From a virus: a DNA stretch of 64,000 nt. Made by a program: the position numbers and the translations under genes. Every line of letters begins with the position of its first letter. Position 1 is the stretch's first letter. The notes beneath the pieces were generated by a model, which saw only the letters and a program-made list of their open reading frames with translations, made no database searches and was not told the DNA's origin. This document shows, one piece after another, positions 1,723 to 47,429 of the stretch. The stretch is taken from the IMG/VR virus record IMGVR_UViG_3300045988_123611; one strand, 5' to 3'.

Positions 1723-1724
1723 TA

Positions 1725-27476: not shown

Positions 27477-27674
27477 TTACTTATCCTCCTTAAAAATAGA
27501 ATTGATAAAAGTGCTATATTCAGTGGGTCTTACATAATACGCGGTTTTCGCTTCATTATCCCAAAAAATCATCACAAGTTTATCCGACCCAGAATTCTTT
27601 ACGGAAATTGAATGAATATGAGTCGTATTAAGGATATGAGTTTGACCTTGATTATCAATAAGTTTAGCAAGCAT
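27477..27674 (-). CDS. hypothetical protein (65 aa)
   Basis: ORF with class-A promoter at 27685-27750. Confidence 0.4.
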   Translation of the reverse strand: MLAKLIDNQGQTHILNTTHIHSISVKNSGSDKLVMIFWDNEAKTAYYVRPTEYSTFINSIFKEDK

Positions 27675-27884
27675 TTTTTATCACCTTTAATAGTTTTTCT
27701 TTATTTTATATTTATATTATATATTAAAATTTAATAAAAATCAATAAAGAATAAGCGATTGGACAAAAATGTTAAATGTAATTAAATGTTAAAAAATTGT
27801 GTTAAAATTTTAGACATCTATGTGTAGGTATTAGAGATCGCTATGCTTAGGATAGAAGGAACATTAGACGGGAAAACCGCGTCT

Positions 27885-28035
27885 TTTTACCAAAAATGGT
27901 CATTTCAAATGAAAATGGTCAAAATTTTCTATATGTTGGTCAAAAATTTCTATAAAAATGGTCAAAAATTTCTATATTTTTGGTTAAAAAATGGTAGATA
28001 AATGGTCAAAAATTTCTATATTTTTGGTTGTATTT
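27885..28035. repeat. Iteron array: at least 5 direct repeats of (A)TGGTCAAAAATTTCTATA spaced ~21-25 bp
   Basis: Sequence reads tggtcatttcaaatgaaaatggtcaaaattttctatatgttggtcaaaaatttctataaaaatggtcaaaaatttctatatttttggttaaaaaatggtagataaatggtcaaaaatttctata. Confidence 0.7.
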
Positions 28036-28099
28036 TTTAGGTCAGGAACAAATAATAGATTATAAATAATTTTTAAATAATAGTGAGAGGAGGTGTGTT

Positions 28100-28723
28100 A
28101 TGGAGATAAAGAAAAATTCTCGATAGATTCCCTCTGTTCCGACTATTACACGAGAAAAAGATTATTGTGATTTATTATATGCTTGGTTGTAGTGTCATTC
28201 AGAGAGAATTACTATGGATAGTGAAGGTCGTCGAATTAATAAGTCATTAGTTAAATGGACGGCCATAGAAAAAGACTTTGTTAGAACATTGTCAGATGGC
28301 ACAACTGAAAAAGTTATGTCAAGAAAAACTATTGCGAAATATTTCAAATATTTAGAAGATAAAGGTTTAATTCAATTACAAGATGATGGTTATTATTATT
28401 TGACTATATTAGATGCTACAGAAGCTAATTTAATTGAATATAATACTTTATCTAAATTAATAAATGTTTTATAGAAAAATAGTTTGAGTATTTATGTTTA
28501 TTTGTTTAATAGATATTACGCCAATGGTTTTTAGCCATTTATTGCTACTATTAAATAGATAAAAGAATTTATTGGTATTGCCACTACCACAACATCTAAT
28601 AATATTATTGTAGATGATACAATTGATATTTTAAAAAGATTAGGATTATTAGATTATAGAATTAAAACTGAAGATAATAAAAGTTATTTAGAGTTTTAGT
28701 GGGTAAAGAACGCGTTAGAATAA
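28100..28723 (+). CDS. winged-HTH replication-initiator-like protein, iteron-flanked, six in-frame TAG
   Basis: GAGAGGAGG RBS + ATG. Central segment LVKWTAIEKDFVRTLSDGTTEKVMSRKTIAKYFKYLEDKGLIQL is wHTH-like. Iteron arrays lie on both sides. Confidence 0.5.
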
Positions 28724-28724
28724 A

Positions 28725-28800
28725 AATGGTCAAAATTTTCTGACGGAGTGGTCAAAATTTTCTGATAAATGGTCAAAATTTTCTACATTTTGGTCGTTTT
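28725..28800. repeat. Second iteron array: 3-4 copies of TGGTCAAAATTTTCT(G/A)
   Basis: Sequence reads aaaaatggtcaaaattttctgacggagtggtcaaaattttctgataaatggtcaaaattttctacattttggtcg. Confidence 0.7.
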
Positions 28801-28930
28801 TTAGAAACCATATAAATAGTAATAGTAATAGTTTTTAAAATAGAGGGTATATATTTATAAAACTCCGGGCTACGCCCTTCGTTTTATAAATATATACCGG
28901 GGTATTTTTTGAGAGTAAAAGGAGTAAAAT

Positions 28931-29182
28931 ATGAGTTATAGTTATACAGATATAAGAGGCGGGAAAGGCAATCCTTCAATAATAAGATTTGTAAGAGGAA
29001 CGCAAGAATAGTTTGATAAGATGGATAAAACAAATATGATAAAACCTGAATTATATATGAGAGATGATATTCTTTATTTTGTTATTCCAAGTAATACAAA
29101 ACCAGTAAAAGTAGCATTTGACAACGATAGACCTGAATCAATAGAAGAAAATCCATTCTTACAAGAGTCAATTGACTTTTGA
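28931..29182 (+). CDS. hypothetical protein (~83 aa, one in-frame TAG)
   Basis: AAAGGAGTAAAAT-ATG. Confidence 0.4.
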
Positions 29183-29412
29183 CTCGGATACTACGTATCC
29201 TCGTTGATAAGGGTATTATTGACTTCGGGCATAAATGCCCTCGTTTATAGGGGTATTATTTGATTTATAATAAATAATATATTATAATATATATAATAAA
29301 AGAAAAAATGAAATGAAAATAATACCCCGTAGGCAGGGAGGATCGTAGATCCGAGTCGCCTGCCGGCGTGGCGAACGCAATTTCAAATGAAAAAACGAAA
29401 AGGAAAAATGAA

Positions 29413-29989: not shown

Positions 29990-30040
29990 TGCGAAAATGC
30001 TGGAATGCTGAAATGCTGAAATGCTGAAATGCTGAAATGC
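29990..30040. repeat. Microsatellite (GCTGAAAT)x6
   Basis: Sequence reads tgctggaatgctgaaatgctgaaatgctgaaatgctgaaatgctgaaaattgc. Confidence 0.7.
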
Positions 30041-30117
30041 TGAAAATTGCGGTTGTGTGGTGCCGATCGGTTTAATCAATCACCAACCACATTTTCCCCG
30101 TCTCCGATCTCCGAACC

Positions 30118-30155
30118 TAAAAAAAAGAGAGACTTTTTTTAGTCTCTCTTTTTTC
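30118..30155. terminator. Bidirectional terminator
   Basis: AAAAAAAAGAGAGACT-TTTTT-AGTCTCTCTTTTTTC. Confidence 0.65.
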
Positions 30156-30221
30156 ATATTAGGCAATTCTTGGTGAAATTGTCGATTCTTAGGATGAAAA
30201 ATATCTCACCCGACACATTGT

Positions 30222-30602
30222 TCACTTATTGATGAAAGTATTCAAAAAATCGGCAATTACATCATCATCAGTTCTCTTGACCTTCTTAACCTTTACTTTT
30301 TCACTCTTGGGAAAAAGCACGTCAAGAAGATCGTTAACCCCGGTCATAAGACCGTAAACCTCAGCAAAGATGTTCTCCACATCGGACGCGGTCAACGCGG
30401 AATCCTTGTAGCCATTAAGAGCGGCATACTCGTTAATCCGATCGGCGATTTCCTGCGCGAGTGCGGTCTTCCGATCGGCCTGCTTGGTTTCCTTCTCTAC
30501 CTGCTTGACCGCAGCGTTCAGAGATTTAGCCATTTCGTCCGCAATAGTCTGAGCGTCCTCACCATTCTTCAGACGAGCAATAATATCATTCATATCCATA
30601 TG
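30222..30602 (-). CDS. hypothetical protein (~126 aa). First gene of the GC-richer cassette block.
   Basis: AAGAAAAGAGGT RBS before MDMNDIIARL. Confidence 0.5.
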   Translation of the reverse strand, partial: HMDMNDIIARLKNGEDAQTIADEMAKSLNAAVKQVEKETKQADRKTALAQEIADRINEYAALNGYKDSALTASDVENIFAEVYGLMTGVNDLLDVLFPKSEKVKVKKVKRTDDDVIADFLNTFINK

Positions 30603-30919
30603 AATACCTCTTTTCTTATTTTCTATATATATTATATACTTTTTTTTTAAAAATGTCAAGATTTTTTTAAATGAAAACATACGTGTGAAACAATGTAAGG
30701 GCGAAGCAATTTTTAATTAATCATAAAGGCATATGATCCTACGCGGGCTTAAAAAAGTCTTTTTTTACCATTATAACATATTTTTTATAAAAAGTCAATT
30801 TTCGGGATTTTTTTGGGCCATATGGAGAGGTGCTAGAAGTATGAGAAATTTTGCATATGGGTATACCGATCGGAAACTCGGCCCGAGACGTTCCACCTCG
30901 GGCCGGCCAACCCAATGTA

Positions 30920-31534
30920 TTAGAGCTCTTGAAGCAACTCCAAAGTTTTTTCGTATCCATACTTATTTATCAATCGAGTTGTTTCAATTGTAATTTCTTT
31001 TCGATTCATTAACATCCATCTGGTGTTATCTTCCGGCGAACCCCATCTAAGATTTTCTAATCTATTATCAGTGCGGTTTCCGTTAATGTGATCTACAATC
31101 TATTCTTCAAAATTAATATTTGGTTGCCAAGATTGTAATACTACACGATGTAAATTATAATTCTAATTATCAATAGAAACTCTAACATAGCCCTAATGAA
31201 TTGTTCCTTTTAAAATTATTTTAGTTCGTTTATTTCTTACTCGACCTAAATTAGAAACTTCATAATTTTTAGAGCAATAAGTTTCTATCCATTTTTCACC
31301 TTCTAGTTCTGTCGTATCACTTCCGCGAGTAGAAAATAAAGATTTATCAACATCTTGTTTTTCTGCGCGTTCAACTGTATAAATTGCTTTTGCTCCAATA
31401 CCTGTCCTTGTAATTAAAAATCCTCGTTTTAATTGATTTTTACAAAACAAAGGAAAATTTGTATTAATTGTGGAGATGGCTACTCCAAAATAATCTGCTA
31501 ATTCTTGTTTATTCAAAATAATCAGTCCTTTCAT
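30920..31534 (-). CDS. HNH homing endonuclease with N-terminal HTH and NUMOD4-like motif, three in-frame TAG
   Basis: ETYCSKNYEVSNLGRVRN (NUMOD4-like). (tag)GYVRVSIDN...LHRVVL...DHINGNRTDNRLENLRW (HNH_3). AT-rich insert in a GC-richer region. Confidence 0.7.
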
Positions 31535-31738
31535 TATTATATAAATTTCGGGATTTCATAATTTTCTATTTTTGTCCGATAATTTTTCGCAAAATTTGCT
31601 AAACCTATAATTATTCCGAAATTCCGCCCGGAGCGTCAGTGATCGGGCGGTTCATTATACCACATTTTCCGATCGGTGTCAATAGGCAAAATGCACAAAA
31701 AAAATCAGCAGGTTTTAGTCAACCTGCTGATTGAATAT

Positions 31739-32155
31739 TTATGCAAGAAATGCGCTTACAATTTCATCGAAAACCGTGGGGTTAATGTCCACATTAAAAA
31801 AGCGGTCGTTCTTGCGGAACGCTTTGGGGTAGCGTCTAATCAGTTCCGCACGCAACGCGCTTTCCGCACCCTCGGCGGGATAGTCCCCGCAAGAACGGAT
31901 TCGATGAACTTCAACGCGCGTGATAGAATACTTTTTCGAGTATTCGCCGATTTCATCACGCAAGCGCCCTACAACGTCTTTTGCGGACGTGCCTACCTTG
32001 TTAAATTCAAGTTTGTTGTTGTTGTAAAACTTGAAAAAGTAGACCGCTTGAACGTCTTTCAGATTCTCGCCACAATTAGGCATAAACTCCATTGAAACGG
32101 GTGGTCTACCGTCCTTAAATCGGCGTAGCTTAATAGTAATTTCTTCCATCGGCAC
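31739..32155 (-). CDS. hypothetical protein (138 aa). Weak GIY-YIG-like pattern.
   Basis: Pattern VYFFKFY...KVGTS...RLRDEIGEY is weak. Confidence 0.45.
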   Translation of the reverse strand: MPMEEITIKLRRFKDGRPPVSMEFMPNCGENLKDVQAVYFFKFYNNNKLEFNKVGTSAKDVVGRLRDEIGEYSKKYSITRVEVHRIRSCGDYPAEGAESALRAELIRRYPKAFRKNDRFFNVDINPTVFDEIVSAFLA

Positions 32156-32272
32156 AAAATCCTCTCTATTGATTGAGGTTTACCATCGTTCTCTCAACCA
32201 TTATTTTTTACCCTTTTTTGCTTGTTTTTGGGTGAAAAACCGCATTTTTCAGCGGTTTTTCACCCTTTTTCG

Positions 32273-32680
32273 TCAGTTTTTGGGCTTTCGCTTTTGAATC
32301 AGGGTCAATTCATAGTCATTTTCGCCCACATGGAACGCAATCATGCGCTCGACATTCGTAATTTCTACATTTTCGCACGCATTTTCGCTGTTTTCACGCA
32401 AAAAAGTCGCAAGTTCAGCGATAATCGAGCGTTTTGTGGGGTTTTCCTTGCGCTGTCGCTTCTCAAACTTATAAGCGGTCGGCGCTTTGCGTGTTCCGGT
32501 CTTAGAATACTTGTTAGCTTCTTTCAGCTTTTCCGCGGACAGGTCAAAGTCCTTGGCGATTCCATGGTCAATGTCATCATCGTCCATGAGAATTTCTTTT
32601 GCTTCCTCGGCAGTACAATCCAACTTTTTCATCAGATTATCAATCTTTGCCTGAAAGTCCTTTTCACTCATTTTAGGCAT
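32273..32680 (-). CDS. hypothetical protein (135 aa)
   Basis: ORF. Confidence 0.5.
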   Translation of the reverse strand: MPKMSEKDFQAKIDNLMKKLDCTAEEAKEILMDDDDIDHGIAKDFDLSAEKLKEANKYSKTGTRKAPTAYKFEKRQRKENPTKRSIIAELATFLRENSENACENVEITNVERMIAFHVGENDYELTLIQKRKPKN

Positions 32681-32780
32681 TTCTTTTGCCCCCTTTCAAG
32701 TATGATTATAACACCGCCGTCAGCAAATGTCAAGAGAAATTTTTGGGAGCGCCTAATTTTTTTTAGGCGCTCCCCCTGAA

Positions 32781-33218
32781 TCAGTGAGCGAGACGGAAGT
32801 AGGACTTGCGCTTGTCCACAATCTTCTCGACGCCGTTCGCTTCAATCATCTGACGCAGAAGAGCGGAAACGCGCTGGTTGGTGAGGTCGCCCAGACCGTC
32901 CACGTTCTTGATGAGGTCGGTCACGGTGTACAGCTTGTCAGGGTTTGCGGACAGCTCAGCGAAGATAATGTCCTTGTAGCCGTCGTTGGCAATCTGATTC
33001 GCGGTCGGCTTCTTATCTCCCGAGTTCTTACGAGCCAACAGGTCAATCTCGTGATTGATAAACTCAACCATAGCGGGGTCAGCCTGAACCTCGCTCATTT
33101 TGAGCAGAGCCTCGAAACGGTCGCGCTTGGTGAGCTTCTTAACAGTAGAAGTAGACATAGTATCAATTCCTTTCTTTGGCGGTAGGTCGCTACCCTTTTG
33201 ATATATTGAGTATACCAC
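32781..33218 (-). CDS. small protein family member A (145 aa), paralog of 35404-35784. Possible winged-helix.
   Basis: About 70% identity to 35404-35784 across KKLTKRDRFEALLKMSEVQA...NQRVSALLRQMIEAN. Confidence 0.6.
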   Translation of the reverse strand: MVYSIYQKGSDLPPKKGIDTMSTSTVKKLTKRDRFEALLKMSEVQADPAMVEFINHEIDLLARKNSGDKKPTANQIANDGYKDIIFAELSANPDKLYTVTDLIKNVDGLGDLTNQRVSALLRQMIEANGVEKIVDKRKSYFRLAH

Positions 33219-33699
33219 ATTTTAGAGTGCTTGTCAAGAGGTTTCACAAACTTTTCACACGAATTACTACCCCGACCTGACGGATAATTTATTGTTTGTT
33301 GATTCAATCTATTTGTCAGCGGAAAACCGCGTCAAGGATAGTTGGTTCAATCAAACTCACTTTCGCGTTCAACGTTTGGCTTTACAACGTGGTGTATTAT
33401 GTTTTCTTCCTGTACTTTCTCAAGGTCGCGCGCCCTCGGATTTCTTGGGCTACTCCCTCTTGACATTTTCTATTGTAGCACACTCGCTGGGATTTGTCAA
33501 GAGGTTTTCAAGAAAAAACTCATGAATTTTTTCTTTTATCCCGTGCGTTCCGCTCCGAAGAGACCTTAACGTAATAGGTGAACGGTCTATTGCTACTTCC
33601 AACCGTAGCCCCACACCGACCTGTGGCTCAGGGGTTCCCCTCTTGACATTATCTATTATAACAGATTGCCCACGGATTACAATTGACAAAATAACCAAA

Positions 33700-33895
33700 T
33701 TACGGGAAAAAATTTTCTTTACTTTTGTGCAACTTTTCTCTTGACAAAATTGGCGGGGCGTGATATAATGGTGAATTCGGCCCGCTTTGGGCGTTGGCGG
33801 GCCGGCCATTTTATCATAAAAGTTCTTGTTTGTCAATAGACAAAATAGACAAAAAAAACTACCCATTTTTGGGCAGTTTTTTTATTTTAGTCCAG
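33700..33895 (+). ncRNA. Plus-strand mini transcription unit, copy 1: promoter TTGACAAAATTGGCGGGGCGTGATATAAT, GC hairpin, ATTTTATCA, TTGTCAATAGACAA, terminator
   Basis: Elements in the same order and spacing as the other six copies. Confidence 0.5.
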
Positions 33896-34132
33896 CAGGT
33901 TAATCTCACCGGGAATTTTGAAAGAATCAGCGTCCAGTGTGGAATTGTAGTCCTCGGTAAAAAGGTCAATCATTCCACATTCCATGATGTAATTCTGCAC
34001 CGCCCGCTGAACATTTCTCCAAAGGTCAATCTTTCGGCTTTCCTCGCGGGCTTTTCTGGCTTCCTGTATCTGGATAATGAGTTCGTCCAGTTCCTCGTCG
34101 GTCATGTAATTCAAATCTAAATCCATTTTCAA
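33887..34132 (-). CDS. hypothetical protein (81 aa)
   Basis: ORF. Confidence 0.45.
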   Translation of the reverse strand: MKMDLDLNYMTDEELDELIIQIQEARKAREESRKIDLWRNVQRAVQNYIMECGMIDLFTEDYNSTLDADSFKIPGEINLLD

Positions 34133-34416
34133 AACTCCCCTTTAATTGCTTCTTTCCATGCATCCCAGCCGAATTTTTCCTCGCGGTCTAACTTCTTGCC
34201 AATGTCTTTTGCGGTCAGTAGGTCAAGCTCGTCCGCAATCTCATCTTCAAAGTTTACCCAAGAGTCGTAGGTCTGAATAATGAAAACTTCATCGGCTTCA
34301 AAGACGCCACCGCACTCGGCGCAGATAATATAGTCATGGTCGATTAAAATGCCCATGTGAGGGTCATTGTCATCAGGGACTACAAAAAGGACTTGTTTAG
34401 CGTTCATGTGAAACAC
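34129..34416 (-). CDS. hypothetical protein (95 aa)
   Basis: Class-B promoter and AAAGGAAAGGGG-type leader upstream. Confidence 0.5.
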   Translation of the reverse strand: MFHMNAKQVLFVVPDDNDPHMGILIDHDYIICAECGGVFEADEVFIIQTYDSWVNFEDEIADELDLLTAKDIGKKLDREEKFGWDAWKEAIKGEF

Positions 34417-34484
34417 CTCTTTCGTTTGATGTATTGATTATACCATAGGGAATAGGACTTGTCAAGCCCTATTCCCTATTTTTT

Positions 34485-35261
34485 TTAGCTCATGTTTACA
34501 ACGGGATTTTCCTTAATGTTTCGCATGAGCGCGCGCTGAAACTCGGTAGGCTTGGGGCGTTCCGCCGTGGGAGTTTTGAAAAGGGACTTTTCCATGGTCT
34601 TATGCTGTCGGACGCAATAGCGCAGAATCTCAACTTCAATGAGAACATCTTCAAGTCCCGTGTGGGATTCATCAAAGCTGTCCTCACCGCTGATAAAGCG
34701 ATAAAGAATTTCTGCGGTAAAGCGGAGCTGTCCGTTCTTGGTCTTGTAGCCGTTCTTTTCGCAATAGTCGCGGTAAGTGGGCATTTTGCCGATAACCTGT
34801 CGCGCCATTTTCAACGTGTCCCAAATTTCGAGGTCGTAGGGAAAGAAATAGCGATACTTGCTTTTCGTGTCCCATCTTTGCGCGTTGTTGCAGGCGTTAA
34901 GGTCGAACCGCATATTATGAGCACAGACAAAAGAGCAGTTGTAGCGCTCGACACATTCGCAGAACGCCTGACGAATTTCGTAAAGGTCAGCCATAATGCG
35001 CGAACCGTTCTTAATGTCCTCAATGTAGCGAGGAATCTTGTCGGCGTAGTAGGCAGACCGCATGAGGTCGCGTTCGTAGCAGAAAATGTCGCGATTCACA
35101 AAGGAATGAGTTTCATAAACATTTCCCTTGGAATCAATGACCGCCCAGCCGAAGTCGTAGGGAAGCACATTTGACATATCCAGCTTATCGCCATCCTGAA
35201 TGGTGTTTGCGGTTTCCGTGTCCAGCATAATGCCGTAGTTTTTGCGCCTATCAATACCCAT
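34485..35261 (-). CDS. DEDDh 3'-5' exonuclease (DnaQ/RNase T-like)
   Basis: Exo I IMLDTETAN, Exo II AHNMRFD, Exo III HTGLEDV. Confidence 0.75.
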   Translation of the reverse strand: MGIDRRKNYGIMLDTETANTIQDGDKLDMSNVLPYDFGWAVIDSKGNVYETHSFVNRDIFCYERDLMRSAYYADKIPRYIEDIKNGSRIMADLYEIRQAFCECVERYNCSFVCAHNMRFDLNACNNAQRWDTKSKYRYFFPYDLEIWDTLKMARQVIGKMPTYRDYCEKNGYKTKNGQLRFTAEILYRFISGEDSFDESHTGLEDVLIEVEILRYCVRQHKTMEKSLFKTPTAERPKPTEFQRALMRNIKENPVVNMS

Positions 35262-35403
35262 CTTATCGTCTCCTATTGGAAAAGTAGATTGAGGTTTACC
35301 ATCGTTCTCTCAACCTCTGATAATAGTATAGCACTTTGCTATTGGTTTGTCAACAGTTTTTTTTGTAGGGCAGGGGATTTTTTTATCCCCTGCCCTTTTC
35401 CCT

Positions 35404-35784
35404 TTACGCGAGGGAGAAGTAGGACTTGCGCTTGTCAACCGTCTTGACAACGGTGTTGGCCTCAATCATCTGACGCAGAAGAGCGGAAACGCGCTGATTG
35501 GAGTAGTCCGCAAGCTCGGGAACGCCCTTGATGAGGTCGGTCACGGTATACAGCTTGTCAGGGTTTGCGGTCATCTCGTCCAGAATGACCTGCTTCACAG
35601 TGTCATTCTCCATCTGCTTGGCCGTGGGCTTCTTGTCGCCCGCGTTCTTCTTGGCGAGCAGTTCAATCTCATGCTCGATGAACGCCACCATGTCAGGATT
35701 TGCCTGAACCTCGCTCATTTTGAGCAGAGCCTCGAAACGGTCGCGCTTGGTGAGCTTCTTAGTGGTAGAAGTAGAAGTAGCCAT
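35404..35784 (-). CDS. small protein family member B (126 aa), paralog of 32781-33218
   Basis: See 32781-33218. Confidence 0.6.
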   Translation of the reverse strand: MATSTSTTKKLTKRDRFEALLKMSEVQANPDMVAFIEHEIELLAKKNAGDKKPTAKQMENDTVKQVILDEMTANPDKLYTVTDLIKGVPELADYSNQRVSALLRQMIEANTVVKTVDKRKSYFSLA

Positions 35785-36287
35785 AGTATCAATTCCTTTC
35801 TGGTTTTTAAGACTGTCCTTGTCTTTGATGTAGTTATTATACCATAGGCGGAGCAGGTTGTCAATAGTTTTTGCAAATTTTTTTTAGGGGCGGTCGCGAG
35901 GTTTATTACTATACATCTTGTTTATACCTACCTTTATCTATACTCATAAACCAATTCATTTTACTAAACCAAATTAGTCTTTAAGGCGGTGGGCGAGCAT
36001 TAGAAGTCATCTTGTTTTTACCTCTCTCATTTGATGTATTCATTATACCCTACGTAGAACGGTTTGTCAAGGGGTTTTTCAAACTTTTTTTGAAAGTTTG
36101 TTCGGCACGCCACGCTTGGAACATTCCGTCGGATTTTGGTATAATGAATGGTCAAGAGAACTGCCTTTCCGAAGGTCTTACTCTTTCCTCCTGACATTAT
36201 GTAGTATAGCAGATTGGTAATGATTTGTCTATTGGTAAAATAGCTAAATAACGGGAAAAAATAAAATTGAAATTTGTGCGAAATTTC

Positions 36288-36435
36288 TCTTGACAAAAAT
36301 GCTGGCAGGGTGTATAATGGTAAATTCCGGCCGTAGCGCGCGGAAACGGCCGGCCCATTATATCACATTCAAGGAATTTTGTCAATGGTCAAAGTAAACA
36401 AAAAAATCTCCCCATTTTTGGGGAGATTTTCTTTT
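36288..36435 (+). ncRNA. Plus-strand mini transcription unit, copy 2
   Basis: CTTGACAAAAATGCTGGCAGGGTGTATAAT, CCGGCCGTAGCGCGCGGAAACGGCCGG, CCATTATATCACATTCAAGGAATTTTGTCAATGG, terminator ATCTCCCCATTTTTGGGGAGAT. Confidence 0.5.
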
Positions 36436-36691
36436 AGCCAATCACACTGACTTCGGTTCTGACAGGCGTTACCATCTTGTCGCGCGAGAACTCGCGAACC
36501 TGACCCGTTTCAAGATTCACCGCGTAGCAATACTGCGAACCTCTCGACCGGACAAACGGCGTGTTGTTGTTGCTGTCAATTTTGAGATACATTCCCATAC
36601 CGCTACCGTTAGAGCGCAGAGTGGTGAACGTGCCACCGCTGAGAATGTTGATAATTTGGAGCTGACCCTTAGTGCCAAAATTTACTTTCAT
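36434..36691 (-). CDS. hypothetical protein (85 aa)
   Basis: ORF. Confidence 0.45.
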   Translation of the reverse strand: MKVNFGTKGQLQIINILSGGTFTTLRSNGSGMGMYLKIDSNNNTPFVRSRGSQYCYAVNLETGQVREFSRDKMVTPVRTEVSVIG

Positions 36692-36707
36692 TTTTATTTC
36701 TCCTCTC

Positions 36708-36852
36708 TTAAAGCAGATGTTCCTTGACCCATTTTGCGGTCACGGTCGCGCGTTCTTTGGTGATAACAGTTTCATAGATGAAAAGGTCGTCATCAATCTT
36801 TTCAACTACTTTTCCGATGATTCCAACATCAACCCAAAAATAAGGCATCATT
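36708..36852 (-). CDS. hypothetical protein (~47 aa, start MMPYFWVDV)
   Basis: AAAGGGGTGATAAAA-ATG. Confidence 0.35.
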
Positions 36853-36856
36853 TTTA

Positions 36857-37063
36857 TCACCCCTTTGAACCGACCGAGAAGATGGACTGCAAAAGCACGA
36901 GAATAATCCAAATTGCGAGTGCCAGCTTCCACGAGAACACGATGACGAAAGTGCCGATTGCGGTAATACCGAGGGCGGGAAGAAGCCAACAGAGAAGCCA
37001 AACCAGACCAGAGGTAGCAAGGAACGAAAATGCGAGAGACAGCAGAATCAAAAGAACAAACAT
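36857..37063 (-). CDS. two-TM membrane protein (~68 aa)
   Basis: AAAGGGGAAAATAAA-ATG before MFVLLILL. Confidence 0.45.
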   Translation of the reverse strand: MFVLLILLSLAFSFLATSGLVWLLCWLLPALGITAIGTFVIVFSWKLALAIWIILVLLQSIFSVGSKG

Positions 37064-37117
37064 TTTATTTTCCCCTTTCATTTGATACATTTATTATACC
37101 ATTGGAGTAGGGTTTTG

Positions 37118-37618
37118 TCAAGCCCTTTTCTCCAAAAGTTCCGAAAGTTTTTCGATAATGTTTACTGCGGTTGGGTCAATGGTTTCACCCAAGTGCCAAC
37201 CATTCCGAACCTTTTCATTATCGTCAACCAAGATGGACACGTCATAGCGGTCGCGCACGCTGTCGGCCTTAGTCGCGCCATATTGGACGCCGTGGAAGTG
37301 GTCATAGTGGAAGCCCTGTTCTTCAAGCCACGCGCGCTTTGCTTCACGCACGAGGTTTTTGTATTCCTCGCTCGAATCTTTGGAAAGCCAAGTGATGATG
37401 TTGATTTCCCAGCCCTCGGCGCGGAGAAGTTCGCAAACCTCATTCAATTCAGCCATATCACACATGGGAACGGCAGTCCGATAGGGCTTAGGATTTTCCG
37501 AACGGAGAAGTGCAAGCCAATCCTTGACGCCGTAGAGGTCAGCAATAGTGCCGTCCATGTCAAAGTTGATGGAGCGTCGAGTGGCCACAACGTGGGACTT
37601 GATGTAAGTGATTTTCAT
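37118..37618 (-). CDS. HAD-superfamily phosphatase (deoxyribonucleotidase-like)
   Basis: Motif I FDMDGTIADL (DxDGT). Motif IV ILVDDN. Confidence 0.7.
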   Translation of the reverse strand: MKITYIKSHVVATRRSINFDMDGTIADLYGVKDWLALLRSENPKPYRTAVPMCDMAELNEVCELLRAEGWEINIITWLSKDSSEEYKNLVREAKRAWLEEQGFHYDHFHGVQYGATKADSVRDRYDVSILVDDNEKVRNGWHLGETIDPTAVNIIEKLSELLEKRA

Positions 37619-37734
37619 AGGTATTTACCCCTTTCCTTTACTGTATCCATAGTATAGCAGATTATTACATTCTTGTCTATTGGTAAAATACCCAAATTCG
37701 GGAAAATAATTAGTTGGACTTTTGGCTAAATTTC

Positions 37735-37887
37735 CTATTGACAAATTGCTGAGATGGTGGTATAATGGAAATTCCGGCCGTGGCATGCGCAAACGGCCGG
37801 CCATTTTATCACACTATTGGATTTTTGTCAATAGGCAAAATAAATAAAATTTTGAGACGAGATTTGGTTATCTCGTCTCAAAATATT
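37735..37887 (+). ncRNA. Plus-strand mini transcription unit, copy 3
   Basis: ATTGACAAATTGCTGAGATGGTGGTATAAT, CCGGCCGTGGCATGCGCAAACGGCCGG, CCATTTTATCACAC, TTGTCAATAGGCAAAATA, terminator TTGAGACGAGAT...ATCTCGTCTCAA. Confidence 0.5.
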
Positions 37888-37888
37888 T

Positions 37889-38341
37889 TTAATGTTCGGA
37901 CACAATGCTGAGGTAGCGGACAATCATGTCCATTTCGCAACCCATGTCCTGCTGGTCGCAAACCGCATAACCCACAAGGTCGCCGTCCGCACAAATCGGG
38001 TAAACGCCATAAGTGTTATTGAAAACAAACGGCTTTCTTTTAAAATCCCACTGGGTCGAAACATAAGGCGGAAAGTTTTCCATACCCCGCAGTTTCACGG
38101 TAGTATCATAGATTGCGATGGGACGCAAACCGGAATTTGATGCCATTGTAATAGCGGTTCGCAGAGCTTCTTCGGTCAAAGAGCCAAGCACCAAATACCT
38201 CTTGAAGCAAACGCAGTCGTTGTCTTCAATGAAGATTTCGAGCGGGTCTCCCTCGCGAATCTTCAAAGTCCGGCGAATCTCTTTCGGGATAACCACACGT
38301 CCAAGGTCATCAATTCTGCGAACAATACCAGTAGCTTTCAT
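37889..38341 (-). CDS. AbrB/SpoVT-family transcriptional regulator (swapped-hairpin N-domain + C-terminal domain)
   Basis: N-terminus GIVRRIDDLGRVVIPKEIRRTLKIREGDPLEIF matches the AbrB/MazE/SpoVT DNA-binding fold. 150 aa, as in SpoVT-like proteins. Confidence 0.7.
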   Translation of the reverse strand: MKATGIVRRIDDLGRVVIPKEIRRTLKIREGDPLEIFIEDNDCVCFKRYLVLGSLTEEALRTAITMASNSGLRPIAIYDTTVKLRGMENFPPYVSTQWDFKRKPFVFNNTYGVYPICADGDLVGYAVCDQQDMGCEMDMIVRYLSIVSEH

Positions 38342-38405
38342 TTTAATTTTCCCCTTTCACTTGATACATTAAGTATAGCAGAATAAAAGGCTTTTGTCAA
38401 GCCCT

Positions 38406-38948
38406 TTATTCAAGATTTTTCCAAAAATAACCGTAAGCGCTCTTTCTTCGTCCTTTTATTACCGCGCTGATATTTGAACTGGCGCTGTCTGATAAATTGA
38501 GAAAATGAATGGCATCACGGACACTATCAAATTCTTTAATTGTTTCATGAGTGGTTTTATTACATATCGCAACTTTTACACAATAACCATTCTTCTTTCG
38601 TGTTTCAACAGATTTTAGAATTCTGTTATCATAATGATTATTCTCTTTATACGTGCACCATTCTAAATTTGAAACATTATTATTTAATTTATTACAATCC
38701 AAATGATTAACACAAGGTAAATTATTTGGATTTGGTATAAAAGTTAAAGCTATTAAACGATGAACTCGACAAGCTTTTTGCTAATTATTTTTACATAAAT
38801 TAACATAATAATATTTTTTCCCTTCTGGACCTCTTAGTTGCAAAGAAAGAAATTTCTTATGTTTCATACTCCAAATCTATCCGTCAGAAGTGGCTTGATA
38901 CCAACCTTCATAACCTGGCACATCTCTAAAAATTCTATTCACTTAGTT
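38406..38948 (-). CDS. HNH homing endonuclease with AP2-like C-terminal domain, two in-frame TAG, GTG start
   Basis: VPGYEGWYQATSDG(tag)IWS (NUMOD4-like). HRLIALTFIPNPNNLPCVNHLDCNKLNNNVSNLEWCTYKEN (HNH). ETIKEFDSVRDA...YGYFWK (AP2-like). Confidence 0.65.
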
Positions 38949-39009
38949 CACCCTTTTTTATTTTATTATACTCTAAAATTTTGATAAAGTCAAGTGGATA
39001 GAGTTTATC

Positions 39010-39483
39010 TTATGTTAGTTTATTTTCAGAAGCGAACATTTTTCCATGATATTTTTTACATAGCTCAGTAATAAAAGCAGTATCTTCTCTTTTATCGCAA
39101 TAGCAATCTAAAACATAATATTTCCCTAAATCATAATAAGTGCAAGGAATTTTTGTTTTTTCAATTTCTTCATGAAACCAAAGAAAATTTTCATGGGGTA
39201 CAGTTGTTTTTACAAGCCATAGCTTGTCTTTGCGGGCTTTCTCTTCAATCCACTTGACAAAGTAGACGCCCACAAAATTACAAACGGCAGTAATAGCCAT
39301 TTTCAACCATATAGGCATACCGTCTGCGGAAGTCAGCACAATCACATAGGAATAAAAACCATAAGTGATAGCATTGATAAGAGACGCGCTAACTTTTCCG
39401 CCGTTGACAGTCAAAATGCTTTTGATAGTTGACAGAATCACATTCACCGCCGTGCAAAGCGCGAACAGAAGAATTGTATTCAT
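39010..39483 (-). CDS. membrane protein (N-terminal TM helices + C-terminal domain)
   Basis: AAGGAAAGGGTGATAATA-ATG before MNTILLF. Confidence 0.5.
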   Translation of the reverse strand: MNTILLFALCTAVNVILSTIKSILTVNGGKVSASLINAITYGFYSYVIVLTSADGMPIWLKMAITAVCNFVGVYFVKWIEEKARKDKLWLVKTTVPHENFLWFHEEIEKTKIPCTYYDLGKYYVLDCYCDKREDTAFITELCKKYHGKMFASENKLT

Positions 39484-39562
39484 TATTATCACCCTTTCCT
39501 TTTTCTATTATAATAATATCATATTATAATAGAAATGTCAATAGAGAGTTTTTAATTTACTC

Positions 39563-39722
39563 TTTTAATTTTTCTAATAGATCATCAGCACATTCATAAC
39601 TGATACTTCTGCGGTTGCACTCGTTGGACAAAGGACAACAAGCGCAGTCATTAAAGGTTTCCGTCCAAGCGCGCAACCAGTCAGTCAAACGCAAAGTGTT
39701 AACTTCCTCATACATTGTTATC
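39563..39722 (-). CDS. small Cys-containing protein (~52 aa)
   Basis: Manual translation MITMYEEVNTLRLTDWLRAWTETFNDCACCPLSNECN. Confidence 0.35.
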
Positions 39723-40055
39723 ATTCTCCTTCACTCGGACAAAAAAGACCTTGTTATAGATTTTATTTGCTTTAAGGTCAATCCAAAAATACACGTTTCC
39801 GCATACTCGATAGATTTTACAAGTTTCTCCGCTAACCTTTTTGACTTCTTCAAATTTCTCAGGCGTTGTGGGGTGGAAAACCGTCAGTTTGAGAAATATG
39901 CAATAGAAAGACAAAGGAACGAAGCCGATAATCAGAGCAATCCATGCGAGAACGTCAGTTAAAGTGTTTTCCCATTCGCACCACTCATCGGTGATTGTAG
40001 CGAACGCAATACCCACGCAAAACGCGAGAATCAACCAATACCATGCGACCATCAT
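39708..40055 (-). CDS. membrane protein (115 aa)
   Basis: TM helices. Confidence 0.5.
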   Translation of the reverse strand: MMVAWYWLILAFCVGIAFATITDEWCEWENTLTDVLAWIALIIGFVPLSFYCIFLKLTVFHPTTPEKFEEVKKVSGETCKIYRVCGNVYFWIDLKANKIYNKVFFVRVKENDNNV

Positions 40056-40154
40056 TTTAGTCCCCCTTTATTTGTTGTATACATCTTACCACATTATAGG
40101 ATTTTTGTCTATTGGCATTTTACACAAAAATTCGTGTGAAAATTTGTTGGACTT

Positions 40155-40282
40155 ACATCTTGACAAAAAACTCGGCGCGCCACAATCGTGCACGCGCCGC
40201 CAATTTTATCACATTCAAGGAACTTTGTCAATAGTGAAATTAAACAAAAAAAATCACCCAAATTGGGTGATTTTTTATTTAG
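40155..40282 (+). ncRNA. Plus-strand mini transcription unit, copy 4
   Basis: CTTGACAAAAAACTCGGCGCGCCACAATCG, GCGCGCCGCC hairpin, AATTTTATCACATTCAAGGAACTTTGTCAATAG, terminator ATCACCCAAATTGGGTGAT. Confidence 0.45.
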
Positions 40283-40287
40283 TTTTT

Positions 40288-40470
40288 TTACGCTTCAAGG
40301 TCTTCGAGAATGGGGACGAGCTTATCTTCAAGAAGCTCGATGCGCTTAATCATTTCATTCCCCGTAGTATTTTTTGAAGAATACTTTTCCTGAACGCCAT
40401 GTCGTGCCATCAGGCACACAGCCTTGACAGTCTCACTAAGTTTCTTATTCTTCATTTTTCTTATCTCCAT
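40288..40470 (-). CDS. hypothetical protein (60 aa)
   Basis: ORF. Confidence 0.4.
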   Translation of the reverse strand: MEIRKMKNKKLSETVKAVCLMARHGVQEKYSSKNTTGNEMIKRIELLEDKLVPILEDLEA

Positions 40471-40565
40471 TTAATTTATTTTTTGGAAAGGGTGTCGGTT
40501 GTTTCAGGCACAACCGCCAAAGCCATTAGAAAGGGGAGAAAAACACGAACAAAAGTTCGGTTTTG

Positions 40566-40814
40566 TCAAGGAATAATCAGTTCCGCGTCATAGACAGGCC
40601 GAACCATGCAGGGCGCGCCAAAGCAGTCGAGATTGTAAGTGTCCAAATTGAGAGCGTTCCATTCTTCTGCGCCGGTATTTTCATCAACCACTGACGCGGT
40701 TTTGATGTAATAGACGTTTCCGGAAGCGGGGTCTTGAAAAATCATACCCTCGGGGAGGTCTTCAAATGCAACCATTTTGTTGCTATGCTTAACAGTAATT
40801 TTCATTTTATTCAC
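40566..40814 (-). CDS. hypothetical protein (82 aa)
   Basis: ORF. Confidence 0.45.
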   Translation of the reverse strand: MNKMKITVKHSNKMVAFEDLPEGMIFQDPASGNVYYIKTASVVDENTGAEEWNALNLDTYNLDCFGAPCMVRPVYDAELIIP

Positions 40815-41166
40815 TCCTTGTTATAACGTTCATAAGCCCGTTCGATAACTTCATGACTCGTGGTAGACCATTCTTTTTTGGGGCTGTCAAACTTGTCCGT
40901 GTATTTTTTGATATAATCGTTGTATTCCATACGCGCGGTATCGTATGCTCCAATAGCCACAAGCAAGGACTGTTTTGCCTTTTCAGCATCGGAAACGGCT
41001 TTCTTGCGGTCAGCACCATCGGGGTAAAGGTTAATCACTCCTACGCGCGTAATGACTTGCCTTGTCTTTTTGTCCATGTAATCGATCTTCTCCCAAAGTT
41101 CATAGGTCATTTCCTCAACGCGCATTTCATATGGGTTAAAAGATTTCTTTTTCTTACCGAACATTT
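40811..41166 (-). CDS. hypothetical protein (~118 aa)
   Basis: AAAAGGAGAAAAAGAAAA-ATG before MFGKKKKSF. Confidence 0.45.
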
Positions 41167-41492
41167 TTCTTTTTCTCCTTTTCCTGTTTATTCCACATTC
41201 TATCAAAGAACGCATTTGCGAGGACACGCTTGTAAAGGTTGTCAGGCATGGGGCGCTCGCCATGCTTGTTTCTCCATATCGCGGTGATTTTATCAATATC
41301 CGCGATATAGGCTGTAATGAGTGTGCCGTCCTTGGCACTACGAATAAGTAGAATACCGGTCGTAGTGATAGTGTAGAGAACATCGTCCTCAACGCTGTCG
41401 ATATATGGTTCGCCGATTCCTACATTATCATAGATGAAGAGCAGGCGGTCAATGCGGTCTTGCGTGGCGTGTTTTGACATTTTGATAAGCAT
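41154..41492 (-). CDS. hypothetical protein (112 aa)
   Basis: AAGAGGAAAAAAAGAGGTAAATAAA-ATG. Confidence 0.5.
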   Translation of the reverse strand: MLIKMSKHATQDRIDRLLFIYDNVGIGEPYIDSVEDDVLYTITTTGILLIRSAKDGTLITAYIADIDKITAIWRNKHGERPMPDNLYKRVLANAFFDRMWNKQEKEKKKNVR

Positions 41493-41567
41493 TTTATTTA
41501 CCTCTTTTTTTCCTCTTGGATTGATTATATTGTATCACAGGAAAGGGCTTTTGTCAAGCCCTTTTTA

Positions 41568-41774
41568 TCAGAAATAATAATTTCTGATGATTGCATCGAA
41601 CTTGGGGGCATATACGTTTTTCCACTGCTCTTCCAGAGTTTTGTCATTCGTGCGATATAATTCCCACGAGACTGCGCCATAAGCATTATGCTTGAAAAGC
41701 TCGGCATCACTGGGCATCTGCTCAGCATAGAGAAGCTGGGTCTTGACAAAAGAGTGAATATTGTAGTTAGTCAT
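41568..41774 (-). CDS. hypothetical protein (~68 aa, start MTNYNIH)
   Basis: GGAAAGATGAGGTAAATAAA-ATG. Confidence 0.4.
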   Translation of the reverse strand: MTNYNIHSFVKTQLLYAEQMPSDAELFKHNAYGAVSWELYRTNDKTLEEQWKNVYAPKFDAIIRNYYF

Positions 41775-41894
41775 TTTATTTACCTCATCTTTCCGTTCCC
41801 CTTGGAACAATTATAGTATAGCAAATGCTTAGGCATTTGTCTATTGACGGATCGCACAAAATCGGGAAAAATAATTTGTGCAAATTTTCGCAAC

Positions 41895-42050
41895 TTTTTG
41901 CTTGACAAATTGCTGGCCCTGTGATATAATGGAAATTCCGGGCGCGTGGGCCGTGCGCGCCCGGCCGAACAGTCATTGTTAAAATTTTAACAAAAATGAA
42001 ATAGAAAGGGCGCGGTAATTATCAGCTACCGCGCAAACCATAGTATGAAA
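41895..42050 (+). ncRNA. Plus-strand mini transcription unit, copy 5
   Basis: CTTGACAAATTGCTGGCCCTGTGATATAAT, CCGGGCGCGTGGGCCGTGCGCGCCCGG hairpin, terminator GCGCGGTAATTATCAGCTACCGCGC. Confidence 0.45.
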
Positions 42051-42178
42051 AATTTGTTTACTACTTCAAGAGGCTTACCATTTCCTCTTGACATGATTAT
42101 AATACCACAATGGGGCGAGTTTGTCAATAGTTTTTTGAAAAAAAATTTCAGGCGAGATAATTAAATCTCGCCTGAAAA

Positions 42179-42385
42179 TTACACGTCCCACATGGCTTCC
42201 GCAATCCAGAAGTAGTCATAGCGGAGTTTTGACTGAATCGCAAACAAGGCGTCCGCGATTTCTTTGCCGTCTCTGCGATCTTCCGTATCTGAAAATTTCT
42301 GGCTTTCTTTCGCAATTCTTTGAGCCAACTTTTCAAGGGCGTCTGCCTGTTCTCTCAAAGCCTGCGGGATAGGTTTTTCATTCAT
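42179..42385 (-). CDS. hypothetical protein (~68 aa)
   Basis: AAAGGGGGAAACAAATA-ATG. Confidence 0.45.
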   Translation of the reverse strand: MNEKPIPQALREQADALEKLAQRIAKESQKFSDTEDRRDGKEIADALFAIQSKLRYDYFWIAEAMWDV

Positions 42386-42734
42386 TATTTGTTTCCCCCT
42401 TTGCAAAGTTAGAGGTTAGCTCTAACGTATGTCCGCATTCATCGCAATACCAATAGTAATAAACTGTTCCATACCGGCCATGAGAAGCATTTACAAATTT
42501 CATTTCATTTCCGCAGATGGAGCAATAGCCGTCACTCCATGCTTTTTTATCGGCGTTGTGGTCTGCAACTACTGCACCCGTCATACCATAGCCAAGGGCG
42601 CATGAAATGAGAAGACCAACCAACAGTCTGACTATTGGGTGAGACTTGTCCATGTTGCACCAACAGACAAGGCAGACAAACAGCGCAAGGATTGCGCTAA
42701 AAATTCCGCCAACAATTAAGAATTCCGTTCCCAT
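42378..42734 (-). CDS. membrane protein with C-terminal zinc ribbon (~118 aa)
   Basis: TM segment then CSICGN...CDECGH. Confidence 0.5.
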   Translation of the reverse strand: MGTEFLIVGGIFSAILALFVCLVCWCNMDKSHPIVRLLVGLLISCALGYGMTGAVVADHNADKKAWSDGYCSICGNEMKFVNASHGRYGTVYYYWYCDECGHTLELTSNFAKGETNNE

Positions 42735-42807
42735 TTTTATTTCCCCTTTCCGCATTTAATGCATTGAGCGTGCGTTCAGCACTTTCCATCGCAATAAGGA
42801 CATTTCA

Positions 42808-42921
42808 TTTTAATTCCCCTTTCTCAAACTCTCTTCAATTTCTTCCCATTCGCTTCTGAACAATTCAATGTTCGTATTGCAGATACACTCTAAAATAGCT
42901 TTAATCTGTTCCTCAGTAAAT
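42808..42921 (-). CDS. 37-aa hypothetical peptide
   Basis: GGAAAGGGGAATAAAAAA-ATG start. Manual translation. Confidence 0.3.
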
Positions 42922-43003
42922 TTCATTTTTTTATTCCCCTTTCCTTTGATACATTAAGTATAGCAAAAAAAGGGCTTTTTGTCAAGCCCTTTTTCTTATT
43001 TTT

Positions 43004-43360
43004 TTATTCTTTTTCTCGAATGGAATAATAAACCTTACTCCCTCGCGGCCTGCGTTTGAGTTTATGGTCGAGGTATAACTGCATACAATACCAAGTGAAT
43101 TTGCCGTTGGCATACTCATAGCCATACTTTTTGAATGCCATAAACTGCATTTCAGTCGGCGTGATAGGTCTGCCCGCCTCGTTCAGCAGTTCAAAGACGA
43201 GTTTAATCATCTGCTGATTTTTCCATTCGCGTTCCTCGCGGTCGGCTTTTAAGTCTCTTTCATATTTGTCGCAAGCGTGTTCTGCGATACTCAGATCAAT
43301 GGGCGAGAGAGTGCCCGACGCGATAGCCTTTTTCAAAACTTCATAGATATCCTTGTTCAT
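43004..43360 (-). CDS. hypothetical protein (118 aa)
   Basis: ORF. Confidence 0.5.
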   Translation of the reverse strand: MNKDIYEVLKKAIASGTLSPIDLSIAEHACDKYERDLKADREEREWKNQQMIKLVFELLNEAGRPITPTEMQFMAFKKYGYEYANGKFTWYCMQLYLDHKLKRRPRGSKVYYSIREKE

Positions 43361-43460
43361 TGTAGTTTCCCCTTTCCTTTATTGTGCTTTTATTATAGCA
43401 TCTGTTTTTGGATTTGTCAAGGGCTTTTTGGAAAAAGAGGGAAAAATTTTCCTTCTTTAT

Positions 43461-43733
43461 TTATCCCCAATAAATCGAAAGAACGTTGTCAATGTAGCTG
43501 GCTTTATAACCATAATTCTGCATGATATCTTTGCAAGCCTGCCTGACCTTCTTGTCATTTATTGAAGCAAGAGAACACTCGTAAAGTGTTTCTCCCGTTC
43601 CTGACACTCGCTCAATTTCTGGCATGATGTGGTCTTCGATGAACGCACGCGCGAGAGCATTGTTTTTAGCTTGGATTTCTTTGCGGACTTCTTCGGCTTT
43701 GCGCGTCATTTCATAAGCATATTTAATTTCCAT
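43461..43733 (-). CDS. hypothetical protein (90 aa)
   Basis: ORF. Confidence 0.5.
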   Translation of the reverse strand: MEIKYAYEMTRKAEEVRKEIQAKNNALARAFIEDHIMPEIERVSGTGETLYECSLASINDKKVRQACKDIMQNYGYKASYIDNVLSIYWG

Positions 43734-43812
43734 GGTGTTTCTCCCTTTCCTTTATTGTATTTTTATTGTAGCATATAGGGCTTGTTTTGTCAAGCCCTAT
43801 ATGCAATTTTTT

Positions 43813-44375: not shown

Positions 44376-44378
44376 TTT

Positions 44379-47381: not shown

Positions 47382-47429
47382 TTTGATTTACCTCTTTCTT
47401 TTTGATGATACAAGTATAGCACATGACTA

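Follow-up and report, generated by a model that had tools for sequence, protein, structure and literature searches.

The window considered here is the whole of a 64,000-nucleotide stretch of viral DNA (IMG/VR record IMGVR_UViG_3300045988_123611), and our subject is a cassette within it in which a gene for a small winged-helix protein is flanked on both sides by arrays of short direct repeats. An initial annotation of the window had proposed that these repeats are iterons bracketing a replication initiator gene, and hence mark an origin of plasmid or phage type. The cassette is real and conserved among relatives, and we found no description of it in the literature searched. It comprises the following features.

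27897-28039, plus strand: upstream iteron array, with four exact and three degenerate copies 19-22 bp apart in a single orientation.
28039-28050: degenerate palindrome AGGTCAGGAACA of the repeat 5' half-site, a candidate autoregulatory operator.
28085-28093, plus strand: ribosome-binding site GAGAGGAGG.
28100-28723, plus strand: gene for a tandem winged-helix protein of 207 amino acids (PHROG 3396), with a first winged-helix domain (WH1) at about residues 1-113 and a second (WH2) at about residues 114-207.
28727-28805, plus strand: downstream iteron array, with three exact cores and a degenerate terminal copy at 28791.
28802-28847, plus strand: conserved AT-rich terminal box TAGAAACCATATAAATAGTAATAGTAATAG...AATAGAGGG, unique in the window.

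The 15-nucleotide core of the repeat, TGGTCAAAAWTTTCT, occurs seven times exactly in the window, always on the plus strand and only in the flanks of the gene: four copies lie 5' of it (27916, 27937, 27959 and 28003) and three lie 3' (28727, 28749 and 28770), the first of the latter beginning 4 nt past the stop codon. With up to two mismatches allowed, 100 dinucleotide-preserving shuffles gave a mean of 1.37 matches and a maximum of 4, and none of the 100 reached seven. Degenerate copies at 27897, 27981, 28025 and 28791 complete the register, for an overall spacing of 19-22 bp, and Tandem Repeats Finder reports a period of 22 (5.2 copies) together with a compound period of 44 upstream, and a period of 21-22 (about 3 copies) downstream. 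The initial count of at least five upstream repeats holds only if degenerate copies are included, since the exact 18-mer then quoted is present three times and a fourth time with one mismatch; the three to four repeats claimed downstream are indeed there, as three exact copies and one degenerate, and the claimed spacing of about 21-25 bp has to be corrected to 21-22 bp for the cores. An iteron origin is expected to have several helix-phased direct repeats of 17-22 bp beside its initiator gene, and the seven exact and four degenerate copies, present only at this locus, agree with that pattern. The terminal box is 86% AT, falls among the 0.6% least stable 50-mers of the window, and is a candidate unwinding or initiation element, or alternatively a promoter.

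The gene itself runs from an ATG at 28100 to a TAA stop at 28721-28723 and has 207 codons, with TAG at codons 9, 31, 125, 145, 153 and 200; six of its eight glutamines (Gln) are encoded in this way. The plus-strand reading frame, earlier described as needing six TAGs read as sense, was confirmed, and the reading of TAG as Gln is well supported by comparison because the identical 207-residue protein, with Q at all six TAG positions, is present in a public collection on 193-197 kb contigs, and because Q9 and Q31 fall on conserved Gln columns (invariant in a 16-sequence alignment, nearly invariant in an 84-sequence one) where relatives use CAA, CAG or TAG. With its first TAG at codon 9 and six in all, the gene would therefore give no useful product without suppression. 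Open reading frames on the minus strand at 0.4-7.6 kb and on the plus strand at 48.9-63.6 kb also lengthen when TAG is taken as sense, and the minus-strand block at 8-27.6 kb is nearly without TAG. In surveys of recoded gut phages, structural and lysis genes are reported to be recoded, and the recoding of replication genes to differ by clade (bioRxiv 10.1101/2021.08.26.457843). A cluster of 12 tRNA genes at 318-4245 (minus strand) includes two each for Asn, Met, Glu and Leu, and a call at 4175-4245 with an abnormal anticodon loop. ARAGORN and Rfam found no suppressor tRNA in the window, and as neither the cluster nor the rest of the window offers a CUA suppressor, the TAG suppressor must lie outside it. 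The initial suggestion that DNA replication is tied to availability of the suppressor is thus right in that the gene is untranslatable without TAG suppression; the link to replication itself is an interpretation.

AlphaFold2, run with the 84-sequence alignment, returned a confident model (predicted local distance difference test 97.2, predicted template-modelling score 0.92) with two winged-helix units linked by a helix, which bears out and extends the earlier impression of a winged-helix-like protein. The family comprises 524 clusters at 90% identity and 231 at 50%, and 81 of the 84 aligned members match PHROG 3396 ("segregation and condensation complex subunit ScpB") over their full length. 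Sequence searches of Pfam, NCBIfam and PDB found only generic winged helix-turn-helix matches, to residues ~45-100, and in the C-terminal half a weak resemblance to DUF6945. In profile-profile comparison with hhalign, our profile (A1) matched P1 RepA with a probability of 65% (E 5.9e-5) and a 29-sequence RepA alignment with 53% (E 1.4e-4), marginal values for a match that spans WH2 only (residues 88-193 of the window protein, residues 171-270 of RepA); P1 RepA is itself a member of Rep_3, and its relatives carry PF01051. The best full-length template-modelling score (TM-score) from Foldseek was 0.44, to 9yzn and 9yzq, which are listed by crystal title only and which we take to be RepE54-DNA co-crystals. 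A viral structure library gave full-length matches to uncharacterised gut-phage proteins at a TM-score of 0.74, one entry among them being named "Replication initiator protein". As modelled, the fold is of the tandem winged-helix class that includes Rep initiators, a class assignment that does not demonstrate membership in Rep_3, DnaD or O-like families. No second family member is present in the 64-kb window, and blastn of the locus against 50,697 phage records gave no matches.

To place the cassette among its relatives we compared 16 distinct loci, taken from IMG/VR, one GenBank record, one Logan contig and one metagenome-assembled genome (MAG) and reaching down to 27% identity, and viewed neighbouring genes within 10 kb on either side of the family gene. 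About 13 of the 16 share the same anatomy: an upstream array, located between -80 and -260, in which 3-7 direct repeats recur every 22 bp or in compound units of 44 bp; a palindrome of the repeat 5' half-site just 5' of the ribosome-binding site, clear in six to eight loci (for example, perfect TGGTCAGGACCA in L007, TTGTTAAnnnnTTAACAA in TGTTAA-type cassettes and TTGTACAA in L009); and a downstream array of 2-4 repeats directly past the stop codon. A terminal element of the form half-iteron-TAGWAWCC-WTATAAATAGWAATAG(R)G is found in 13 of the 16 loci, its sequence kept across clades whose iterons differ. The repeats are clade-specific (TGGTCAAAAWTTTCTATA, TGTTAAAATTTTAGACACCTATAT, TGTACAAAATTTTCTGA and TGAAAGAAAAAAGTAKGTAAA), and the protein changes along with them. 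The predicted recognition helix of WH1 tracks the 5' block of the repeat, pairing SRKTIAKYF with TGGTCA, SRQTVSTKF with TGTTAA and DRRSASKYV with TGTACA (a fourth WH1 helix is SPPTIRKYF), and the helix of WH2 tracks the 3' block, pairing TTSNN..DDTIDIL with TTTCTATA/TTTCTGA and TRSNND..NILYVL with TTAGACACC; the 5' and 3' blocks are about one helical turn apart. This co-variation extends over four to five independent clades, is suggestive rather than statistical, and would fit a single monomer reading one repeat with both of its domains. Genes adjoining the cassette on either side are small and unrelated and vary between phages, and because they vary the conserved unit is the cassette itself, not a pairing of a regulator with its target.

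Exchange of the cassette as a unit is seen directly in a 192.8-kb IMG/VR contig (L021), which aligns collinearly with the window and is 85-96% identical to it on either side of the cassette. In this contig the interval corresponding to window positions 27486-28837 has been replaced by one encoding a 37%-identical protein, with repeats of the TGTTAA type (TGTTAAAATTTTAGAC) and a perfect palindrome. Two further features of the window bear on this exchange.

27770-27823, plus strand: foreign-type compound repeat unit TGTTAAAT...TGTTAAAAAATTG TGTTAAAATTTTAGACATCTATGT, of TGTTAA type, a 95% match to L012.
28846-28910, plus strand: long hairpin (28846-28898; AT-rich stem, GC tip) and the T-run behind it; a backbone element.

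The compound unit is of the kind that belongs to the cassettes of L012, L013, L018 and L021, and L021 in turn holds a reciprocal TGGTCA-type relic upstream of its own cassette. On the simplest reading, these foreign upstream repeats are probably scars of successive cassette replacements. Together, the co-variation and the swap support the view that the flanking repeats are the cognate sites of the protein encoded between them, and in this respect the initial annotation, which had described iterons flanking their cognate initiator, appears to have been correct. The right-hand break of the swap falls just before the long hairpin, and the hairpin accordingly belongs to the backbone; it is probably a terminator or insulator. 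We had considered it as a cassette-specific element and rejected this, as it is part of the backbone common to L021 and similar hairpins are frequent genome-wide.

Several smaller observations concern the same junctions. In L005 and L006 (86% identical), a third repeat flavour, AGGTAAAAATTGTGGGTAATTTTTCATAG, occupies the relic slot about 290-330 nt upstream of the gene; this slot evolves quickly. A 65-residue gene at 27477-27674 (minus strand) is missing in L021, where a 112-residue gene comes straight after the same leader and ribosome-binding site, and is a small gene insertion beside the cassette. Of 24 IMG/VR contigs, eight stop no more than about 2.6 kb from the cassette, several of them inside the upstream array (contigs ending near the cassette are L007, L015, L017, L019, L020, L025 and L027, and also L029 and L001). 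These ends are likely a product of strain-level swapping that breaks assemblies, with real genome ends the lesser possibility. L013 was considered as a small circular replicon and rejected, having no terminal overlap. The Logan contig (L029, SRR28408214) encodes a 285-residue member (gene at 115-972) whose repeats, TGTGGATAT/ATATCCACA, resemble DnaA boxes at 8 of 9 positions.

In a single-protein scan of a bacterial-genome collection, the sole match was a 33-kb contig in a faecal Lachnospiraceae MAG (L031, JBGVOM010000060.1), whose protein is 71% identical to the L013-type protein and is a weak hint at the host; with the GGAGG ribosome-binding site, this one match leads us to infer a Firmicutes-type gut bacterium as host. 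The cultured Enterococcus phages EF1, EF5, H1 and VRE9_1 to VRE9_4 (134-142 kb) carry a homologue 28-30% identical (for example L032, Enterococcus phage VRE9_1, PP680567.1, 7001-7696) that pipelines have annotated as 'ScpB', a label that comes only from PHROG 3396. Pfam ScpB has no match to the window protein and is not among the most-matched families of the 84 members, and the precomputed Pfam tables list no ScpA or SMC partner among the neighbouring genes. We consider the label probably a fold-level misnomer, because flanking repeats that co-vary with the protein point to sequence-specific DNA binding, a property that the label does not predict and that ScpB is not known to have.

A stereotyped promoter motif rich in AT, TTGA(T/C)(T/A)TTTT-N13-TATAAT, matches at 22 sites of the window where 2.4 would be expected. 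Almost every copy is on the minus strand, in the 2-31 kb interval, and lies before small TAG-free genes; these are probably the early promoters of the phage. Sites of this class span 2250-44695 (for example 3630, 11968, 16125, 20938, 24954 and 27716 on the minus strand, and 29260 on the plus strand). Two of them bracket the cassette.

27716-27744, minus strand: leftward promoter (PL), TTGATTTTT-N14-TATAAT, heading a TAG-free minus-strand block of about 20 kb and conserved in L021.
29260-29288, plus strand: rightward promoter (PR) of the same class.

PL and PR form a divergent pair, and the TAG-rich gene sits between them in a 1.5-kb island that neither transcribes. PL and PR themselves account for two of the window's three least stable 50-mers (tracts 27686-27736 and 29254-29304). 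GC content is lowest in the locus (0.30), with 0.37-0.39 on its left and 0.40-0.46 on its right, so the earlier placing of the locus exactly between an AT-rich and a GC-richer block is only roughly right. The further short repeats reported beyond the gene, as boxes at 28860-29270 and a six-unit tandem, were located as follows: GGGGTATT lies at 28899, 29250 and 29321 (minus strand), with a near copy at 29210, and (TGCTGAAA)x5-6 is in tandem at 29995-30046. The window has four exact GGGGTATT copies, of which three cluster at 28899-29321, each after a short GC-rich hairpin CTCGG...CCTCG, and the TGCTGAAA tandem is followed by a perfect bidirectional terminator (30118-30155) where the plus-strand island meets a minus-strand block. 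The interval 30000-48600 has a GC content of 0.40-0.46, about 30 small minus-strand genes and near-zero GC skew; it contains internal repeats (32788-33175 resembling 35408-35801, and 33639-33881 resembling 36184-36437, 37650-37849 and 44259-44374) and looks like an array of related cassettes. A late block at 48928-54991 (plus strand) encodes a sigma factor (phrog_5767, two TAGs), a zinc-ribbon protein (phrog_3314), the large terminase and the portal, all with TAG.

The layout of repeats, gene and repeats finds its closest parallel in known replicons with flanking iterons. The annotated record of phage P1, whose layout has been established by experiment, has five RepA iterons with 21-bp spacing over PrepA in oriR, then repA, then nine iterons (incA) from the stop codon, and the order at our locus matches this incC-repA-incA arrangement by analogy: 21-22 bp repeats upstream over the promoter region, and a second array in the same orientation at the stop codon. 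As in the P1 R replicon, the putative initiator has two winged-helix domains and the element lies within a phage genome. The F plasmid has an equivalent arrangement in ori2-repE-incC. The differences from P1 are also considerable: the window protein has 207 residues as opposed to the 286 of RepA, without a Rep_3 match and with only the marginal WH2-level similarity in hhalign; DnaA boxes, Dam sites and an adjacent par operon are absent; the host is probably of Firmicutes type and the gene is TAG-recoded; and P1 has no counterpart to the conserved terminal AT-rich box. Lactococcal theta replicons of the pCI305 type, with 3.5 copies of a 22-bp iteron, an inverted repeat at the repB promoter and an AT-rich region, resemble the cassette in several respects: they occur in a low-GC Gram-positive setting, have a 22-bp period and an inverted repeat near the rep promoter that shares iteron sequence, and carry an AT-rich element next to their iterons. 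However, their RepB belongs to Rep_3 and they have no downstream array, whereas the window protein is without a homologue in PLSDB and its Rep_3 membership is not demonstrable. Phage lambda (O/ori-lambda) and SPP1 (G38P/oriL) also place a winged helix-turn-helix initiator beside or over its own repeated sites, in modules that are swapped among related phages, and share similarity with our family at the helix-turn-helix level of PHROG. In those systems the origin lies inside the initiator gene, the initiator has a C-terminal domain that recruits the helicase or its loader, and a loader gene comes next; in the window, by contrast, the repeats flank the gene, the protein consists of only two winged-helix domains and no loader gene follows. 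Neither a match to the profiles of DnaD, replisome organizers or lambda O beyond the helix-turn-helix nor a helicase-loader gene was found at the locus or in its relatives.

We propose as the most likely explanation, with a confidence evenly balanced between acceptance and doubt, that the locus is a self-contained, exchangeable replicon cassette of the iteron (theta) type, comprising an origin together with its initiator. Iteron origins consist of phased direct repeats bound by a winged-helix Rep, with an adjacent unwinding element that contains short repeats and, optionally, DnaA boxes, and Rep can bind the short repeats of the unwinding element as single-stranded DNA (PMC4980987). For the window, the repeats, the reading frame, TAG as Gln, the fold, the conservation of the cassette, the co-variation and the swap are shown; binding, stoichiometry, origin activity and timing are the parts that we infer. 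Each 15-18-bp direct repeat would be bound by one monomer of the 207-residue protein, with one of its winged-helix domains on the 5' block (TGGTCA) and the other on the 3' block (TTTCTATA) one helical turn away, and the 21-22-bp spacing, equivalent to two helical turns, would set all bound monomers on the same face of the DNA. The upstream array and the half-site palindrome near the ribosome-binding site may autoregulate the gene, and the downstream array, ending in the AT-rich box, may be a melting and initiation site, a copy-control array like P1 incA, or both. With six TAG codons from codon 9, no functional protein would be made before TAG-to-Gln suppression is established, and because the protein needs this suppression to be active it would function after the early, TAG-free phase.

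A considerable number of observations weigh against this proposal. The window protein has no match to Rep_3 (PF01051) in Pfam at E<=10, Rep_3 is absent among the 25 most-matched of 53 Pfam families hit by the 84 members at E<=0.01, and at profile level there is no membership in the Rep_3, RepA_N, DnaD or lambda-O families; PHROG side matches to replication-initiator families cover a helix-turn-helix only, of about 35 residues (~51-88). A profile check of the initial annotation's Rep assignment thus yields no Pfam Rep_3, DnaD or replisome-organizer match, leaving the marginal hhalign match to WH2 of P1 RepA. Structural similarity to RepE is likewise weak and not above that to generic winged-helix regulators. 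Homologues are absent from plasmids (tblastn against the 72,556 plasmids of PLSDB), no helicase, loader or primase gene lies beside the cassette in any locus, and in the Enterococcus phages the homologue is a lone plus-strand gene amid small minus-strand genes, with no flanking repeats. The heavy use of TAG places the gene with the late genes, not where one would look for an initiator that is needed early, and flanking control iterons typify copy-limited plasmids rather than lytic amplification. The palindrome in the window is degenerate, and no DnaA box (TTATCCACA, up to one mismatch) occurs at 26.1-30.3 kb. As for an adjacent unwinding element, the nearby AT-rich tracts had to be discarded: they are PL and PR, and as members of the 22-copy promoter class do not qualify as a dedicated one. 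A better candidate is the conserved terminal box, which abuts the downstream array. GC skew does not single out the site either. Skew flips sign at 26-28 kb but stays positive no further than the plus-strand island extends, and within the window its cumulative curve reaches a minimum at about 48.5 kb. In 11 of 12 loci, minus-strand genes on the left of the cassette exceed those on the right in coding-strand skew; third-position skew (0.03 for left-minus, -0.01 for right-minus and 0.20 for late-plus genes) does not fit an additive replication model and follows gene class rather than replication direction, and we therefore rejected GC skew as an origin locator. Taken as a whole, the locus was correctly described in the initial annotation, and its interpretation as an origin is plausible but only partly supported, with the P1-like layout in its favor; the profile, skew and unwinding checks gave no clear positive answer.

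The same anatomy could also arise if the protein were an autoregulated transcription factor acting as a timing switch, which is made after the code switch, coats both arrays and controls its own promoter and the PL-PR island, with no role in replication. WH1 resembles MarR, Crp and ArsR regulators at the same weak level as any Rep similarity, the half-site palindrome lies beside the ribosome-binding site, the cassette falls exactly between PL and PR, and in relatives of the TGTTAA type the array begins only about 15 bp from the -35 of PL; TAG-rich coding would suit a middle or late regulator. We nevertheless think this unlikely. Its sites occur nowhere else in the 64 kb, the variable flanking genes leave no conserved target, the arrays of the window are 150-460 bp from PL and PR, multi-copy 22-bp direct repeats on both sides of a gene are unusual for a simple regulator, and the phage has its own sigma factor for late genes. 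Centromere-binding proteins also adjoin direct-repeat arrays and autoregulate, and a segregation or genome-organizing center, in which the arrays would be a centromere (like ParR/parC, TubR/tubC, pSK1 Par, or a site where a condensing complex loads) in a plasmid-prophage or during late infection, could draw further on the PHROG 3396 label, which groups the family with tandem winged-helix ScpB-like proteins, on the appearance of the tandem winged-helix proteins ScpB, Stn1 and ESCRT-II among the top Foldseek matches, and on an antitoxin-like (MazE) gene about 10 kb away. Yet no ParA, ParM, TubZ, SMC or ScpA partner gene is adjacent in any locus, and no partition nucleoside triphosphatase gene lies within 10 kb on either side, here or in relatives. 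The lack of a Pfam ScpB match, of known sequence-specific binding by ScpB and of plasmid homologues counts against such a center as well, and a TAG-coded gene could not be expressed in a standard-code lysogen; we regard this explanation as distinctly improbable.

Very improbable, in our view, is a packaging or genome-end site, where a late DNA-recognition factor would mark a pac site or terminal-repeat boundary, comparable to the R sites of lambda cosB or to SPP1 pacL/pacR. The late-like coding of the gene with its six TAGs, the match of three family members to a small-terminase PHROG, and the contigs that end near the cassette are all compatible with it, as is the kinship with cultured large Enterococcus myophages, which have long terminal repeats. 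However, the protein is ruled out as the small terminase by position, as another gene (50033-51220) lies directly upstream of the large terminase (51220-52959) as its partner, 22 kb from the cassette, and tandem winged helices without an oligomerization domain are not a small-terminase architecture. Strain-level swapping explains the contig ends equally well, and in complete 193-197 kb contigs the cassette is found at arbitrary positions.

Returning to the iteron replicon, what appears to be new here, judged from comparative sequence, is a putative iteron/initiator cassette that is swappable between near-identical phages, depends on TAG suppression and uses a protein family with no link to replication so far. 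It is tempting to speculate further that large TAG-recoded gut phages carry exchangeable initiator/iteron cassettes, that each newcomer is inserted next to its predecessor and leaves foreign iterons upstream, that these old iterons are kept as decoys or incompatibility determinants against co-infecting relatives, and that a TAG-coded initiator delays replication, or a late mode of replication, until the code switch; we hold this combined scenario to be a long shot. If the cassette is an origin, a replication origin and its initiator would have been assigned from sequence for widespread uncultured gut phages of about 100-400 kb, including TAG-recoded ones, and a misleading "ScpB" annotation already spread by pipelines would be corrected. 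The compact fragment of about 1.1 kb would offer a testable vector origin for Lachnospiraceae-like hosts. The swap and the relic repeats show turnover of a specificity module between nearly identical phages, and the cassette would provide a concrete test of stop-codon recoding as a gate on the stages of infection, with a DNA-binding master element, and not a structural or lysis gene, behind the gate.

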